NCBI GenBank assembly: GCA_019057795.1 | Contig: JAHLWS010000060.1 | Location: 15,432 to 79,431 of the forward strand | Reading direction: 5' to 3' | DNA: 64,000 bases | Source: Promethearchaeota archaeon | GTDB taxonomy: Archaea; Asgardarchaeota; Lokiarchaeia; Sigyniarchaeales; SOKP01 | Part shown: piece after piece, positions 22,246 through 63,093 of the stretch | How positions within the stretch are numbered: position 1 is the stretch's first letter | Layout: the number at the start of each line of letters is the position of its first letter | The notes under the pieces: generated by a model | Seen by the model: only the letters and a program-made list of their open reading frames with translations | Databases searched by the model: none | Told to the model about the DNA's origin: nothing | Translations under genes and position numbers: made by a program

Positions 22246-23127
22246 GTGAGGAATATCGTAAATAAAACGAAAGCTTCAAAAAGAAGATTTAAAAAAGCAG
22301 AAGATATAATAAAAAAAGAAATAGAAAAGTCAAAGAATTACCTTAATATTGCTGGTGTGATTATTTTAGCTCTTGATACAGAAGGTAATATTATGTTACT
22401 AAATAAAAAAGGTCATAGAATACTTCAATACAACGAAGGAGAATTAATAGGAAGAAATTGGTTTAAAACATGCCTTCCTAAACGATATAGAGAAAATACT
22501 TATGAAACTTTCAATAAATTAATACAAGGCCAACTTGAACTCACAGAGTTTTACGAAAACCCCATATTGACCAAAAATGGAGATGAAAGAATAATTGCTT
22601 GGCATAACTCTTTATTATTTGACAGTAATGGAAATGTAATTGGAACATTAAGTTCAGGAGAAGACATCACCGAGCGCAAAAGAGCAGAGGAAAATTTAAA
22701 AGATTCTGAAGAAAAATATCGATATTTATTTGATAGCGCCCAAGTTGGGTTATATTGGTCAAAAATTAGTGATGGTAACTTTTTAGAATGTAATGATACT
22801 TTTGCCAAATTATTTGGATATGATACGCGAGAGGAATTTTTAGCAAATTATAATGCTATTGAGCATTACCTTGATCCAAATGCGCGGAGTGAACTATTAG
22901 AAGAAATCCGTGACAATAAAGAAATTAAGAATTATGAAATACATGTCACCAAAAGAGATGGTACTCCAATTTGGGTGAGTATATCTGCTCGAATGTTTGA
23001 AAATGAAAACCGTATTGAAGGTGCTGCTATTGATATCACCGAACGCAAGATAGCAGAGAGGGAACTGCAACTTGAGCGAGATAACTTCATAAATATTTTA
23101 AATTCAACGAGGGAAAAGGGAGTATAA
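22246..23127 (+). pseudogene. PAS-PAS sensor protein, C-terminally truncated (no output domain)
   Basis: Two PAS/PAC domains (GEDITERK, AIDITERK); ends at the start of a third PAS linker. Confidence 0.7.
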
Positions 23128-23296
23128 CTAAGGTTTCTGGAATAAGTCCTCCTTCTCCTGAAAGAACAGTAATTGTTTTAATTCCTATATAAAGTCTATC
23201 AGATTGGGGTATATCTCCTAATAAAACTACAGGATTAGGACCAACCTCCTCGTTCATCTCAGTGTATAAAATTCCATTAATTAGTTCTGTCTCCAT
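23087..23296 (-). pseudogene. Truncated N-terminal longin/uDENN-like domain, paralog of the 60757 N-terminus
   Basis: LINGILYTEMNEEVGPNP...IGIKTITVLSGE..IPETLVILPFPSLNLK aligns to LINAIVYTEIHDALGPNP...IGIKTVTILTGD..TPESLFIIPFPSLRLK. Confidence 0.8.
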
Positions 23297-31677: not shown

Positions 31678-33201
31678 TTAAGAGATATACCTTATTAGTA
31701 AATCTTGTGTACGGTCAAGAAAATCTTGAATGTTTTGGTTAATTTTCTCTTTTGTGCTCTCGTTGTCTAATAAGAAAAGAATGAACATATCGTAATGTAA
31801 AACCTTAATTTTCTTAAACAAAATAACTGAGTTTGAAACTTTAAATACCACTTCGCCCTTCTCTGCAGCTTTATATTTTGAAAATATTTTAAACAACATG
31901 GCAAATTGTGGAGCTACAACCTCAAATATGTTTAATAAATCCTCAGATTTTTGCATTTTTGTGATTTTCATTGCCTCAGGAGTATAAAATTCAGCCAATA
32001 CTAATCCATCGTTGCTTAACAAGAGCGCCAAACACGCGTTAGTTTTTGACGAAAATATATGAAGGTTATGTTCGATCAAGTCTCTGTTTGGACTTAATTT
32101 GGCTATACCTGAAGAAAAAGCTCTTAAAATAGTAAAGATTTGAAATACACTTGTTATGTAAATTTCAGGACTTTTGTCTAAAGAGATTTTAGCTAACTTA
32201 TTTTTTATTACTTTTAAATAATTTTTAATTTCTTTAGAATCAATTATGTCGGGGTCTCCTTTCGATAAAATGTAGATAATTGGAGTTGCCTGTTCTAGTT
32301 GAGCTAATGCTTTTTTTATATTTTTAAGATATTCAAAACTTTCTTCAAATCGGGCTTTATTTTTTATATCAATGAAATAGAAAAGCAAATCTGCTTCGAA
32401 TAAATAGATCTGGGCTTTATTAAGATATTTTTCGTGGTATGCTTTTTGACCACCTAAGTCCCACAGAAAAATTGTAGCCCCTAGTGCTTCTATTGAACTT
32501 ACATCTGCCCCCCTCGTAGGTTTTAATCCAATCAATTTTGAAAATTTTCTATCTATTGAAAGCAAAAAGCTCGTCTTCCCACTATCGTCAAGGCCCGCGA
32601 ATAAAATTTTCATTTTTCTTTGCGATGTAATAGGCGTTACTGGAGTTTTTTCAATTGTGATTATTTTTTTTAAAAGGCTCTTAAAATAACGTTTTACTTG
32701 CTCTTGTGGTTGGAACTCTTCAGCAATTATTTTATCAAACTGGTTAAAGAAATCGATAACAATATTTTTTAATCGATTGATGTTGTTATACAAGAATCCT
32801 CTTTGATTCTCGTCTACTAATATGCAGAAAGCAGTTGCCAAAGGAGCTTCATCAAATTTTACTTCAACAAAATGAAAAAATGTAAGTGCTGTTAAATGAA
32901 AATCTGGAAATGGGATAACTCCAAAGTATTGGTATTGCTTTAGCAAAGCGGAGTCTTTATTAAATAACGTCCCGTCCCCGAGGAGAAGGCTTAAGGTTTT
33001 AATTGAGATTTGCGTATAATCTCTTAAAGACATTTTAAGCCCTTTTCCAACTAATTTTTCTTTATTTTCAACTCCCAAAGCTTTCTCCTTAATTGGTTTA
33101 GGGAACATATAAATTGGTTGAGGACCTAATTTGTCGTAGGCGCAAAACACTAGTCCTTTGACCAAAGAAAACTCAATTAAATCATCCATTACATAGAACA
33201 T
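31678..33201 (-). CDS. Longin/uDENN-like + Rag/Arf-like GTPase + Roadblock-like fusion protein
   Basis: N-terminal FCAYDKLGPQP; GLDDSGKT, PTRG, WDLGGQ, SKGD, TSVF; C-terminal ALLLSNDGLVLA; paralog of 45335..46747. Confidence 0.85.
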   Translation of the reverse strand: MFYVMDDLIEFSLVKGLVFCAYDKLGPQPIYMFPKPIKEKALGVENKEKLVGKGLKMSLRDYTQISIKTLSLLLGDGTLFNKDSALLKQYQYFGVIPFPDFHLTALTFFHFVEVKFDEAPLATAFCILVDENQRGFLYNNINRLKNIVIDFFNQFDKIIAEEFQPQEQVKRYFKSLLKKIITIEKTPVTPITSQRKMKILFAGLDDSGKTSFLLSIDRKFSKLIGLKPTRGADVSSIEALGATIFLWDLGGQKAYHEKYLNKAQIYLFEADLLFYFIDIKNKARFEESFEYLKNIKKALAQLEQATPIIYILSKGDPDIIDSKEIKNYLKVIKNKLAKISLDKSPEIYITSVFQIFTILRAFSSGIAKLSPNRDLIEHNLHIFSSKTNACLALLLSNDGLVLAEFYTPEAMKITKMQKSEDLLNIFEVVAPQFAMLFKIFSKYKAAEKGEVVFKVSNSVILFKKIKVLHYDMFILFLLDNESTKEKINQNIQDFLDRTQDLLIRYIS

Positions 33202-45334: not shown

Positions 45335-46747
45335 ATGTCGAAACCAAAAACAGAGATCATAAAGTCAATTGTTTTAAGTGTGTTTGACGACGATGGTCCA
45401 ACTCCAAAAATATATTGGCCAAGTAATATGGACGAATCTTCGCGATTATTAATTGCAATGAAAACGATTAGCTTACTTATGGGCGATTCAATATATCAAA
45501 ATAGTACATCTACAGAAGAAGTAAACTATTTTGGAATATTACCCTTTCCTGATTTAAAGTTTAATGGATTAACTTACTTTTTTCTAATTTATGATCCAAA
45601 AGCAAGAGGAAATGCTAAAGCGGCTACAATAACTGTGTTAATAAACGAGGAAGATAGGGTTTTTTTCTACGAAAATATGAAATATTTAAGAGTAATTATC
45701 GATAGTGCCGCCTCAAAAGTTCAATTAACAAAATCTTTAGAAGAAAATGAAGTTATCATAAATGAATTAAGAGAAGAATTGTTAGAATTTACAAGTGAAA
45801 TAAAAGACCCATTTTCTTTAAAACGACAAATCAAAATTTTATTTACCGGTTTAGACAAGGCAGGTAAAACGGTTTTTCTTCTGGCGGTTCAAAAGCGATA
45901 TTCTGAGATTATTAAAGCGTTACCGACCAAAGGAGTAGCAAGAACGGAAGAAAAGATATTTGAAGAACAAAACTCGACTATATCAATTTGGGATCTAGGT
46001 GGGCAAAAGCAATATCGCGAAAAGTTTCTCGAACAACGCAAGATTTACTTATATAACGTAGATTTACTCTTTTACATTATAGACATTCAAGATTCCGAAA
46101 GGATTGCAGAAGCAATAGAATTATTTAAAAAAGTAACAGATTCTCTACTAGAGTTAGACGAATTTCCTCCGATCGTTGTATGTCTAAATAAATACGACCC
46201 TGATATACAGAAGTCAAAAGAAATTAAAAATAATCTAAAAACTTTAAACGAAGAAATTAGTAAGATTTCTGGAGGGTTTTTCGTTAAAATTTTTGAAACC
46301 TCGATTTTTGACCATTGGTCTTTGATATCTGCTTACTCTTACGGACTTTCACAACTCAGTCCAAATAGAGAGTTGTTCGAAAACCAATTGAAACATTTCG
46401 CTAAGAAAATAAATTCTGATGCAATACTTCTGCTCAATGAAAACGGAATAATTTTGTCAAACTTTTCTAAAACAGGCATTTCCGAAAAGGTTTTTGAAAT
46501 TTCGGCGCCGCATTTCCAGACGCTCTACAAAACATTTAAGGAATTTAAGTTACTAAAACAAGATTTCTTAATTTCTTCAGGAATAACAAACCAATCTAAA
46601 AAAATAATATTTAAAAAGATCCCCGTTGAAAAATACAATCTATATTTGTTACTCTTTATGGAAAAGGATTTAAATCTAGAAAAAATCGATAAGAATTTAC
46701 CAAAATTCTCTAAAAATCTTAAGGATTTAATTCACACCTATATTTAA
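45335..46747 (+). CDS. Longin/uDENN-like (DPKARG motif) + Rag/Arf-like GTPase + Roadblock-like fusion protein
   Basis: SVFDDDGPTP, IYDPKARG; GLDKAGKT, PTKG, WDLGGQ, NKYD, TSIFD; C-terminal AILLLNENGIILS. Confidence 0.87.
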   Translation: MSKPKTEIIKSIVLSVFDDDGPTPKIYWPSNMDESSRLLIAMKTISLLMGDSIYQNSTSTEEVNYFGILPFPDLKFNGLTYFFLIYDPKARGNAKAATITVLINEEDRVFFYENMKYLRVIIDSAASKVQLTKSLEENEVIINELREELLEFTSEIKDPFSLKRQIKILFTGLDKAGKTVFLLAVQKRYSEIIKALPTKGVARTEEKIFEEQNSTISIWDLGGQKQYREKFLEQRKIYLYNVDLLFYIIDIQDSERIAEAIELFKKVTDSLLELDEFPPIVVCLNKYDPDIQKSKEIKNNLKTLNEEISKISGGFFVKIFETSIFDHWSLISAYSYGLSQLSPNRELFENQLKHFAKKINSDAILLLNENGIILSNFSKTGISEKVFEISAPHFQTLYKTFKEFKLLKQDFLISSGITNQSKKIIFKKIPVEKYNLYLLLFMEKDLNLEKIDKNLPKFSKNLKDLIHTYI

Positions 46748-60756: not shown

Positions 60757-61812
60757 ATGAATGTGCAAAAGGGATTAATAAACGCAATTGTTTACACAGA
60801 GATACACGACGCGTTAGGACCAAATCCTATTTATTGGTATCCTTCTAGTTTACCAGAAAACATTAGAATGCTAATTGGAATTAAAACAGTTACAATCCTT
60901 ACAGGAGATCAAGGAATCACACCAGAATCTCTCTTTATTATCCCATTTCCATCTTTAAGGTTAAAAGGGTTAATAAGATATATTGAAAGGGAAGATGAAA
61001 CCCGAAGAGGGGGGTACGCTAGGTCAGCTATTACTTTCTTGTTTAAAGAAGAGGACGATGTTATTTTCTATAAATATATGGTTTACATTAAAGCCCCTTT
61101 CAACGAAGCAGCGAGAAAAATTATAGAATTAGAAAACCAACAGGCTGATAGTGAAAGAATTTTTGAAGAGATAAAATTATTAGGAGATAGCATTAGTAAG
61201 CTACTCGAAGATTATAGAAGTAAAGAGATTTCTCCACTCTCTAGTGAAGAATTTCCCGAACATAGAGATAAAAAAATAGAAAAAGTTAAGTTTAAACTCA
61301 AATTAGTTGTTGTAGGAGACCCTGGGGTAGGAAAAACATCAACAATTCTACGATTTTCCGATAATGCATTTCTTAGAACTTACATTCCTACCATGGGAGT
61401 TAATATCACGGAGAAAAGCTTTCGCGTTAAAAAAGACGTCCTTGAAGTGATATTATGGGATATAGCAGGGCAATCAAAATTCCAAACGATGAGAAGACAC
61501 TTTTATCAAGGCTCAGAAGCTATTATACTTATTTTTGATTTAACAAATCCATTAACTTTTAGAAGTATAAAGAATTGGTACGATGATGTAATAAAGAATA
61601 TGGATAAGCAGCCTAAAATGATAGGTTATATTTTTGGAAACAAAAGCGATTTGGTAGACGAAAGAAAAGTTCAAGAAAGCGAAGGGTTAGCATTAGCTAA
61701 AGAGTTAAATCTGGAATACATAGAAACCAGCGCTTTGACAGGAAATAACATTGAAAACGCTTTTTATAAAATAGCAGAAGCAGTAATTGATACGCATTTA
61801 GAAGAAACTTAA
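60757..61812 (+). CDS. Longin/uDENN-like + Rab-like GTPase fusion
   Basis: YTEIHDALGPNP, DETRRGG; GDPGVGKT, PTMGV, WDIAGQ, NKSD, TSA. Confidence 0.88.
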   Translation: MNVQKGLINAIVYTEIHDALGPNPIYWYPSSLPENIRMLIGIKTVTILTGDQGITPESLFIIPFPSLRLKGLIRYIEREDETRRGGYARSAITFLFKEEDDVIFYKYMVYIKAPFNEAARKIIELENQQADSERIFEEIKLLGDSISKLLEDYRSKEISPLSSEEFPEHRDKKIEKVKFKLKLVVVGDPGVGKTSTILRFSDNAFLRTYIPTMGVNITEKSFRVKKDVLEVILWDIAGQSKFQTMRRHFYQGSEAIILIFDLTNPLTFRSIKNWYDDVIKNMDKQPKMIGYIFGNKSDLVDERKVQESEGLALAKELNLEYIETSALTGNNIENAFYKIAEAVIDTHLEET

Positions 61813-61823
61813 AGGTAATAAAT

Positions 61824-62399
61824 ATGAATATTGAAGAAGCGATATATAAAAGAAGAACTATAAGAAGATTTAAACAAGATCCAATATCAATTGAAACCCT
61901 AAAAAAATTAATAGATTTTGCTCGAGTTGCTCCAATGGCCCGAAATGTTCAAGGTCTCGAGTTTGTTATAGTTGAAAATAGTGAAACAAGAAAAAAATTA
62001 TTTAAATTAATTAAATTTGCCGGTTCTTTACCTGAAGACCAGCGAACTCCAGAATCCGGAAGGGAACCTACAGCGTACATAATAGTACTTGTTAATACAG
62101 AAATTAAACCCTCATTTTTTGATTTTGATGTTGGAGCAGCGGTAGAAAATATATTATTAGGTGCAGTTAAATATGGAATAGGGAGTTGTTGGATGGCTAA
62201 CATTAAAGTCAGAAAAATTAAAACCTTATTTGAGGTTCCAGATCAATATCAAGTTAAACACGTAATCAGCTTAGGATACCCTGATGAAGAATCATTCATG
62301 GAACCTTATGAAGATTCATATAAATATTGGAAAAATCCCGATGGTACTATGCATGTCCCAAAAAGAGATTTAGATGATATAATTTTCAAAATATATTAA
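61824..62399 (+). CDS. Nitroreductase family protein
   Basis: RRTIRRF, AP.A.N.Q, DVGAAVENILL.A...GIGSCW, LGYP. Confidence 0.92.
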   Translation: MNIEEAIYKRRTIRRFKQDPISIETLKKLIDFARVAPMARNVQGLEFVIVENSETRKKLFKLIKFAGSLPEDQRTPESGREPTAYIIVLVNTEIKPSFFDFDVGAAVENILLGAVKYGIGSCWMANIKVRKIKTLFEVPDQYQVKHVISLGYPDEESFMEPYEDSYKYWKNPDGTMHVPKRDLDDIIFKIY

Positions 62400-62514: not shown

Positions 62515-63093
62515 CTAGAGTTGTTTTTTCTTATATTTATTATGTAATTCAGTAATTATAGCGTGAAATGCTGGAGTGACTCCTTTACCTGTTTTTGCAG
62601 ATGTTCTATAGTATCCAAGAAATTTTCTTTTATTTACTAATTTCAAAATATTTGCCTTATCTAAACTCTCTTCATCAACCAAATCAACCTTATTTCCAAA
62701 CACTATTATAGGAATATCTCCACAATACTGTTTGATATCATTGTGCCAATTAGTAATATGTTTAAAGCTTTCTCTACCAAGCTCATTTTCTTCAAGAGAA
62801 TATACAATAATAGCTGCTCTACTATCTTTAAAAAACGATGGTCGTAAGAAATGGAACTCATCCTGGCCAGCTATATCCCAGAAGAACAACGTGATTTCAT
62901 CTTTATCTATTATATCATTATATTTTGAAAATTGTGCTCCTATGGTTTTGATGTAATCTTCTTTAAAAGAGCCCTTTGTGAATTTTTTAATTAGAGAAGT
63001 CTTACCTACCGCGCCATCGCCGATAATCGTAATTTTAAAAACATATCTAACTTTCGTATCTTTCATTGAATTTACCTTTATAGTTTGAATCAA
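62515..63093 (-). CDS. Rab-like small GTPase
   Basis: GDGAVGKT, TIGAQF, WDIAGQ, NKVD, TSAKTG; basic C-terminus with no Cys. Confidence 0.92.
   Translation of the reverse strand: MIQTIKVNSMKDTKVRYVFKITIIGDGAVGKTSLIKKFTKGSFKEDYIKTIGAQFSKYNDIIDKDEITLFFWDIAGQDEFHFLRPSFFKDSRAAIIVYSLEENELGRESFKHITNWHNDIKQYCGDIPIIVFGNKVDLVDEESLDKANILKLVNKRKFLGYYRTSAKTGKGVTPAFHAIITELHNKYKKKQL

Follow-up and report, generated by a model that had tools for sequence, protein, structure and literature searches.

Longin-GTPase gene in the window

We examined a gene in a 64,000-nucleotide stretch of DNA (the window) from a Promethearchaeota archaeon of the class Lokiarchaeia, order Sigyniarchaeales (assembly GCA_019057795.1, contig JAHLWS010000060.1, positions 15,432 to 79,431). 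The gene, at window positions 60757-61812 (+), encodes a two-domain protein (P0001), in which a longin domain of the FLCN/NPRL2/SMCR8 type is tethered by a helix and a linker of ∼20 residues to a complete Rab-like GTPase. A single frame runs unbroken from the ATG for 351 codons, with exactly the coordinates and length given by an earlier reading of the nucleotide letters (the original prediction). The strings on which that reading was based are all present: AIVYTEIHDALGPNPIYWYP at residues 10-29, EDETRRGG at 79-86, GDPGVGKT at 187-194, WDIAGQ at 234-239, and NKSD at 295-298. G+C content was 28%-35% across the window. The gene has the following features:

60757-61812 (+): coding sequence of P0001, a longin plus Rab-like GTPase of 351 amino acids (aa), with an ATG start (open reading frame [ORF] listing and translation)
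60781-61137 (+): longin core, residues 9-127 (AlphaFold2 [AF2] model of the N-terminal domain, VIA-align, and PDB profile match to 8yqg)
60817-60822 (+): GP motif, Gly21-Pro22, between the first and second strands (codons verified)
61006-61008 (+): codon of Arg84, which sits in the loop joining strands 4 and 5 (residues 80-86) and is a candidate arginine finger (conservation and alignment)
61150-61290 (+): long helix, residues 132-157, followed by a flexible linker, 158-178 (AF2)
61291-61806 (+): Rab-like small GTPase domain, residues 179-350 (Pfam Ras, PDB matches, and verified motif codons)
61315-61338 (+): P-loop GDPGVGKT (motif codons verified)
61459-61473 (+): switch II DIAGQ (motif codons verified)
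61639-61650 (+): G4 motif NKSD (motif codons verified)
61726-61734 (+): G5 motif TSA (motif codons verified)

Pfam recognized only the protein's C-terminal half, as Ras (4e-47 at residues 182-343), with weaker matches to Roc and Arf. The longin is followed by the linker and then the Ras-family GTPase, with no DENN or d-DENN module in between or beyond according to Pfam and AF2. As the original prediction had it, P0001 has no roadblock domain; the protein stops after the final GTPase helix (residues 332-350 in the AF2 model), with the C terminus ...DTHLEET. An AF2 model of the full-length protein (83-sequence alignment; mean predicted local distance difference test [pLDDT] 89.6, predicted template modeling score [pTM] 0.63) was confident in both domains and weak in the linker around residues 158-178, with mean pLDDT values of 52-75 over residues 151-180. 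Glu157, at the end of the long helix, is near-invariant in the longin-GTPase family. P0001 had 1498 homologs, every one of which carried Ras, Arf, or Roc Pfam domains, and the close homologs were named as GTP-binding proteins of Lokiarchaeota, Promethearchaeota, or Hodarchaeota.

A longin fold of the GAP type

Modeled on its own from a 106-sequence alignment, the N-terminal domain reached a pLDDT of 93.5 and a pTM of 0.88. Its strands (E) and helices (H) are E10-17, E21-28, H34-50, E60-64, E69-79, E87-97, H98-106, H108-127, and H132-158, an order that corresponds to the longin topology, with no N-terminal helix of the roadblock type. The top match in a Foldseek search of the PDB was 8yqg, "longin domain from a Lokiarchaeota Roadblock-Longin protein" (6e-7). 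After it ranked chains of ∼360-370 residues from GATOR1 entries (9o5a_H at 2.7e-5, 9o5d_D, 9v0j_A, and 7t3b_B), followed by the yeast SEA complex, FLCN-FNIP2, Lst4, and C9orf72-SMCR8; expect (E) values for the GATOR1 and SEA-complex chains ranged from 2.7e-5 to 1e-3. The tool does not name the GATOR1 chains, and their length is consistent with NPRL2. The resemblance to the start of NPRL2, which the original prediction had pointed out, is thereby backed by structure.

VIA-align, a structure comparison independent of Foldseek, gave Z-scores of 18.3-18.4 for 8yqg (root-mean-square deviation 1.9-2.2 Å over 140-144 residues), 14.6-14.8 for Lst4, 12.7 for FLCN-complex chains, 11-12.2 for C9orf72/SMCR8 entries, 10.2-11.8 for GATOR1 chains, and 10.6 for a SEA-complex chain. 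Other longins scored lower (TRAPP 9.4-9.9; DENND1 9.3-9.5, with DENND1A at 9.3; SNARE and adaptor [AP] longins about 8-9), and a second run repeated the ranking. By this measure, the longin of P0001 is structurally nearer to those of FLCN, FNIP, NPRL, SMCR8, and C9orf72 than to those of TRAPP, DENN, and SNARE proteins. The nearest eukaryotic clusters in the ESM Atlas were C9orf72 (template modeling [TM] score 0.74), SMCR8 (0.69), and "UDENN FLCN/SMCR8-type" (0.69).

Sequence-based comparisons gave fainter signals. A profile of the N-terminal domain matched 8yqg ("Longin domain") in the PDB with an E-value of 1.5e-13 and, weakly, residues 58-79 of SMCR8 (E 1.3), and PDB sequence searches with single N-terminal domains found no FLCN or NPRL2 chains. 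The Pfam Folliculin family (PF11704) matched 24 of the 106 N-terminal domains in the family at E-values up to 1 (best 1e-6). One relative scored above the cut-off (P0223, 24.5 bits vs. 23.3), and the 45335-46747 protein of the window described below (P0002) gave an E-value of 0.0014. The predicted structure shows P0001 to carry a longin fold of the GTPase-activating protein (GAP) type seen in FLCN, NPRL2, and SMCR8.

The GP motif and Arg84

A GP motif and an arginine finger mark FLCN, NPRL2, and SMCR8; GP is also present in C9orf72 and is absent from longins without GAP function, namely FNIP2, NPRL3, the adaptins, TRAPP subunits, and DENND proteins (PMC12290439). GP sits beside the arginine finger, and both occur in the Asgard longins termed "FLCN/SMCR8-type" (PMC12290439). 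Judged by the matched range, G68-P69, the SMCR8 site named in that work, falls within the stretch (residues 58-79) that the N-terminal profile matched weakly.

In the AF2 model of P0001, G21-P22 opens the second strand. The structure prediction proposed earlier as a check on the arginine places Arg84 in the hairpin loop between strands E69-79 and E87-97. In the 83-member alignment, G21 was kept in 74, P22 in 73, R84 in 71, and G85 in 70 sequences. Of the two arginines named in the original prediction, R84 is conserved (71/83, 86%) and R83 is not (32/83). VIA-align mapped model residues 6-154 onto residues 5-144 of the NPRL2-length chains; Arg84 would fall near Arg78 of NPRL2.

The two motifs tend to come and go together. 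Among 178 full-length family members, 161 had both GP and the arginine, 11 had neither, and six had one alone; 11 of the 17 members that lacked either one thus lacked both. We also considered a division of labor between Arg-bearing and Arg-less partners, as in NPRL2/NPRL3, and rejected it as a general rule of the Rab-like family: Arg-less members are scattered over the tree, with at least five to nine losses. Of the copies at 14 loci of relatives where the genes are paired or in tandem, almost all carried the arginine and two carried a lysine.

The Rab-like GTPase domain

The GTPase domain of P0001 has a complete set of G1-G5 motifs, including Thr212, at positions that are invariant or nearly so in the family (invariant: K182, G187, G192, K193, D235, G238, N295, K296, and D298; near-invariant: Gln239 of switch II). 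Pfam scores were 160 bits for Ras, 60 for Arf, and 24 for Gtr1_RagA, the last confined to the G domain. All 60 matches listed in a PDB sequence search were of the Rab family (Rab, Sec4, and Ypt1), the best being Rab8A/Rab10 (1e-33), with a Thorarchaeota Rab at 4.6e-30. The domain's designation as Rab-like, made originally from its motifs, is thus borne out. A comparison by eye with the RabF1-F5 (Rab family) motifs showed partial resemblance (WDIAGQ.KF, FYQGSEA, and LIFDLTN). Judged by sequence, the domain is Rab-like and not a canonical eukaryotic Rab, because the C-terminal prenylation cysteine is missing; the whole 351-aa protein contains no cysteine, and prenylation is therefore impossible.

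A side observation concerns Pro189 (61321-61323) of the P-loop, which corresponds to Gly12 of Ras; 161 of the 178 family members have this proline. The same type of P-loop is found in the two closest free-standing paralogs (contig C59) and in few other GTPases of the genome. We tested a coupling between Arg84 and Pro189 and rejected it: Raw counts suggested a strong association (proline in 155/164 Arg-bearing members and in 6/14 Arg-less ones), and phylogenetically independent pairs were too few to reach significance (median p 1).

The same longin with a Rag-like GTPase

A longin profile search of the genome recovered seven longins of this type, of which four lie in the window, P0001 included. 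The other three are:

45335-46747 (+): P0002, 470 aa, longin (GP, Arg91) plus Rag-like GTPase plus C-terminal roadblock-like region
31678-33201 (-): 507 aa, longin plus Rag-like GTPase plus C-terminal domain (profile 5.7e-13, Pfam Gtr1_RagA 3.6e-21)
23087-23296 (-): 69 aa, shortened copy of the longin N-terminal half, GP present (profile 9e-19)

The original prediction held that a single genome pairs one longin module with two different classes of GTPase, and the comparison of P0001 with P0002 substantiates this claim. BLASTP aligned residues 1-175 of P0001 with residues 1-165 of P0002 at 34% identity over 141 aa (E 8e-23), confirming the homology of the two N-terminal domains. The alignment sets G21-P22 on G21-P22 and R84 on R91, the arginine of DPKARG, so that EDETRRGG and DPKARG occupy equivalent positions as had been proposed. 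The G domains were much less alike (27% over 97 aa, E 1e-4). They belong to separate Pfam families, with P0002 matching Gtr1_RagA at 1e-25, as opposed to Ras in P0001, and the G domain and C-terminal part of P0002 matched best a Lokiarchaeal RagA-like structure (8yl2, 1.6e-37) and also human RagA (9e-14). Because the longins are homologous and the G domains fall into different families, one longin type has been joined to two GTPase classes.

The 507-aa protein retains GP, and its equivalent loop lacks an arginine; by analogy with NPRL3 and NPRL2, it might serve the 45335-46747 protein as a non-catalytic partner. The 69-aa ORF, 48% identical to residues 4-77 of P0001 with one TGA within the match, is probably a gene remnant, and it overlaps the 3' end of an opposite-strand PAS-domain gene (22246-23127). 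The genome has one longin plus Rab-like copy and, on contig C55, a degenerate one, and most relatives have two or three (L005-L018).

Distribution and architectures of the family

A HMMER scan with residues 1-135 against 1.84 billion cluster representatives yielded 145 representatives. The majority were 340-360 aa long with a Rab-like G domain, and this fusion accounted for 62 of the 106 N-terminal domains in the longin alignment. Rag-like G domains were found in nine representatives, usually with a C-terminal domain, and many others were fragments truncated by contig ends. In further architectures, a TIR domain followed the GTPase (P0136), or the longin was joined to a TrmB-type winged helix-turn-helix (wHTH) domain (P0243), to an N-terminal receiver domain, or to no detected partner. 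The receiver-like domain was judged by eye, and a 386-aa longin protein has a helical tail of no recognized domain (G000, contigs C62 and C53). Two giant proteins returned by the search (P0161 and P0205) were discarded as spurious, being composed of SprB repeats and repetitive eukaryote-like sequence.

Within the class, 121 genomes were sampled, and each of them matched the longin profile, carrying one to 12 copies, mostly in frames of ∼350 aa. Of 151 genomes sampled from the phylum, 68 matched, and strong ∼350-aa matches were confined to the window's own order. P0001 is a signaling protein, and its family is apparently universal in this archaeal class.

In a phylogeny inferred from the longin domains, those fused to Rag-like GTPases formed one clade with 99% support in the Shimodaira-Hasegawa-like approximate likelihood ratio test (SH-aLRT), nested with receiver-longin proteins, other forms, and six Rab-fused sequences; the remaining Rab-fused longins lay in the other clade, of 79 alignment rows, also with 99% support. 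Because the tree separates the Rag-fused clade from the main Rab-fused clade, each fusion looks old and vertically inherited.

The genes are also loosely linked. Relatives usually have a nearby longin-GTPase paralog, adjacent or 2.6-4.3 kb away. Several related genomes carry the Rab-fused genes and both Rag-fused genes on one contig, inside a span of about 20-35 kb (G025:C95, G031:C248, G011:C37, G028:C35, and G023:C91); the arrangement is as in the window and amounts to a loose but recurrent linkage.

Neighboring genes and transcription

Two genes lie directly downstream from the longin-GTPase gene:

61824-62399 (+): nitroreductase-family gene (Pfam Nitroreductase, 1.6e-25), starting 12 bp past the stop of the longin-GTPase gene
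62515-63093 (-): free-standing 192-aa Rab-like GTPase (Pfam Ras, 2.1e-41), convergent, 116 bp beyond the nitroreductase stop

Among 14 loci of relatives, taken from two genera, 10 had a nitroreductase gene adjoining the longin-GTPase genes (tblastn; L006-L013, L016, and L017), separated by 5-27 bp from the longin-GTPase stop where both ends could be read. The nitroreductase is probably a conserved neighbor and co-transcript of the longin-GTPase gene; the pairing looks like a conserved operon and has no obvious link to GTPase signaling. Near-identical DNA was found in sediment and cold-seep metagenomes. Two metatranscriptome libraries contained contigs of relatives with ∼92% identity, one of which covers 60778-62085 and crosses the junction with the nitroreductase. 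Such a contig attests presence in an RNA library; as to transcription, it gives no more than a faint hint, and for a relative.

A proposed role for the longin, and its rivals

On balance, we lean toward a longin that acts as a built-in GAP of a small GTPase through Arg84, in cis, across a dimer, or on a close paralog, by analogy with the eukaryotic GAP longins. Two longins would pair, as in 8yqg, FLCN-FNIP, NPRL2-NPRL3, and SMCR8-C9orf72. Arg84, beside GP, would be inserted into a G domain's nucleotide pocket, whether the protein's own, the dimer partner's, or a closely related paralog's. There it would complement Gln239 and speed up GTP hydrolysis, resulting in a self-timed switch. A predicted complex of the longin (residues 1-160) and the G domain (residues 176-351) with GTP and Mg (score 0.00, mark 0.32) spoke neither for nor against binding.

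Several observations weigh against a built-in GAP. P0001 itself falls below every Pfam longin and Folliculin threshold, and its residues 1-175 have no Pfam match. The arginine was lost at least five times on well-supported branches, and nine times on the best tree (built without the GP and arginine columns), with the G motifs intact. These repeated losses of arginine and GP leave the G domain in place and show that it does not depend on the arginine for its retention; at least some paralogs can dispense with this residue. The second Rab-like fusion of this genome (contig C55) is a case in point: GP is replaced by KP and RRGG by KIGS, and the G motifs are intact. The closest solved relative, 8yqg, has GP and no arginine at the Arg84 site. 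The correspondence of Arg84 with the finger of FLCN (R164), NPRL2 (R78), or SMCR8 (R147) is a putative one, read from its loop position and the aligned ranges. Finally, given the full-length pTM of 0.63 and the low-confidence linker, the model predicts no relative placement of the longin and the GTPase.

A number of these points would suit a longin whose sole role is to dimerize or to act as a scaffold that holds two Rab-like G domains together or docks partners, in the manner of MglB-type platforms or the C-terminal roadblocks of Rag GTPases, with Arg84 and GP serving folding or partner binding. The nearest solved structure is titled as a dimeric longin and does without the arginine, Rag roadblock domains are among the structural neighbors (Z about 8), adjacent paralogous gene pairs are common in relatives and suggest hetero-pairs, and Arg-less family members keep their G motifs. 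We nevertheless consider such a platform unlikely: GP and Arg84 are 86%-89% conserved and usually lost together, which fits one functional site better than a need of the fold, and the motif pair is confined to GAP-type longins (PMC12290439). Somewhat less probable again is a GAP acting in trans on free-standing Rab-like paralogs or Rag-like proteins, the fused G domain being a targeting or regulatory switch in a GTPase cascade. Potential targets abound, with about 61 Rab/Ras-like ORFs in the genome, including the convergent one at 62515-63093; the longin GAPs of eukaryotes work in trans; and the same longin type is found beside TIR, TrmB-type wHTH, and receiver domains, or beside no second domain that was detected, hence without need of a fused G domain. 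The dominance of the G-domain fusion (62/106) and its stability across the class make a cis or homotypic client the simpler assumption.

The longin might instead be a guanine nucleotide exchange factor (GEF) for the fused Rab-like domain, as are DENN, Mon1-Ccz1, and TRAPP longins. The longins of DENND1 uDENN, TRAPP, and Mon1-Ccz1 are indeed structural neighbors at Z 8-9.6, and eukaryotic longins that act on Rabs are typically GEFs (PMC3747258). We think this improbable, in that the GAP-type longins score clearly higher (Z 10-15), P0001 lacks DENN and d-DENN modules, and GP and the arginine are reported to be absent from TRAPP and DENND longins (PMC12290439). An artifact, whether mis-assembly or two genes read as one, has a negligible probability and is refuted by the uninterrupted frame, the hundreds of full-length homologs of 340-360 aa from many sources, the matches in every sampled genome of the class, and the DNA and RNA-library contigs of relatives that span the domain junction.

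More tentatively, the fusions may represent an early state of the longin GAP family: An arginine-finger longin, covalently tied to its client and acting in cis or in a dimer, would have served both Rab-like and Rag-like GTPases within one lineage before eukaryotes split the parts into GATOR1, FLCN-FNIP, and C9orf72-SMCR8. We regard this scenario as possible, and less probable than the built-in GAP itself. If true, the commonest archaeal client of GAP-type longins in the class would be Rab-like and not Rag or Arf, and the nitroreductase neighbor might tie the switch to redox state.

Comparison with known systems

The longin-GTPase layout and the GP and arginine motifs of Asgard longins were already known from separate descriptions, and P0001 is no new kind of system. 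What is new is that the longin of the Rab-like fusion shares its GAP type with that of the Rag-like fusion; that the longin-Rab-like fusion is the commonest architecture and is present in every genome sampled from the class; and that GP and Arg84, as read from the family's sequences, are both conserved and tend to disappear jointly. The joining of two domains in one gene argues strongly, if circumstantially, that they function as a pair, and the fusions name concrete longin-GTPase pairs. Because the same longin type is fused to each in one genome, both Rab-like and Rag-like GTPases are likely clients of these longins.

Longin-GTPase and longin-GTPase-roadblock ("LGR") forms have been tabulated in Prometheoarchaeum syntrophicum MK-D1, and one protein of the Rab clade, WP_147663426.1, bears the label "LG" (Tran et al. 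2024, PMC10933270, Supplementary Fig. 5). This protein has the same longin-then-GTPase layout as P0001, and its G-domain segments WY.DV, GNKCDL, LA.ELN, and YLETSA fit the family consensus. It is merely tabulated there, and its longin subtype, GP, arginine, and family spread are not analyzed. Fusions of longins to Arf-like GTPases in Lokiarchaeum are credited to Klinger et al. (2016) in PMC4917890. The LGR protein of the window (45335-46747) shares with P0001 a homologous longin, with GP and the arginine at aligned positions; LGR proteins have a Gtr1/RagA-type G domain and a C-terminal roadblock-like domain, whereas in P0001 the G domain is of the Ras/Rab type and ends the protein.

The closest solved structure, 8yqg, comes from a Lokiarchaeota Roadblock-Longin protein and shares the GP motif, but it has Pro/Glu in place of Arg-Gly, and its partner domain is a roadblock and not a GTPase. 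It is one of four Lokiarchaeal PDB structures released in 2025-2026 (8yqg, 8yl2, 8zla, and 9m28; Roadblock-Longin and the RagA-like "LokiRagO" and "LokiRagM"), which are apparently unpublished; literature searches for 8YQG, "LokiRag," and "Roadblock-Longin" returned nothing relevant.

GATOR1 (NPRL2-NPRL3), FLCN-FNIP, and C9orf72-SMCR8 resemble P0001 in the longin fold, the GP before strand 2, and, putatively, the conserved loop arginine (motifs per PMC12290439). These complexes control nutrient signaling at lysosomes and are encoded by disease genes, hence the interest in their origin and in the Asgard clients of such longins (PMC12290439). The eukaryotic longin GAPs end in modules of the DENN type and form heterodimers, which work in trans on Rag or Arf GTPases at lysosomes; P0001, in contrast, carries a covalent Rab-like GTPase and no DENN module, and its GAP activity is putative. 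The Asgard "FLCN/SMCR8-type" longins (Traffic 2025, PMC12290439) have the same motif pair and the same proposed kinship to eukaryotic GAP longins. That study mentions no GTPase fusions and names ArfR or Rag as possible clients, whereas here the partners are fused and the commonest is Rab-like, which suggests that Rab-like proteins are worth considering as clients of Asgard longins beside Rag and Arf.

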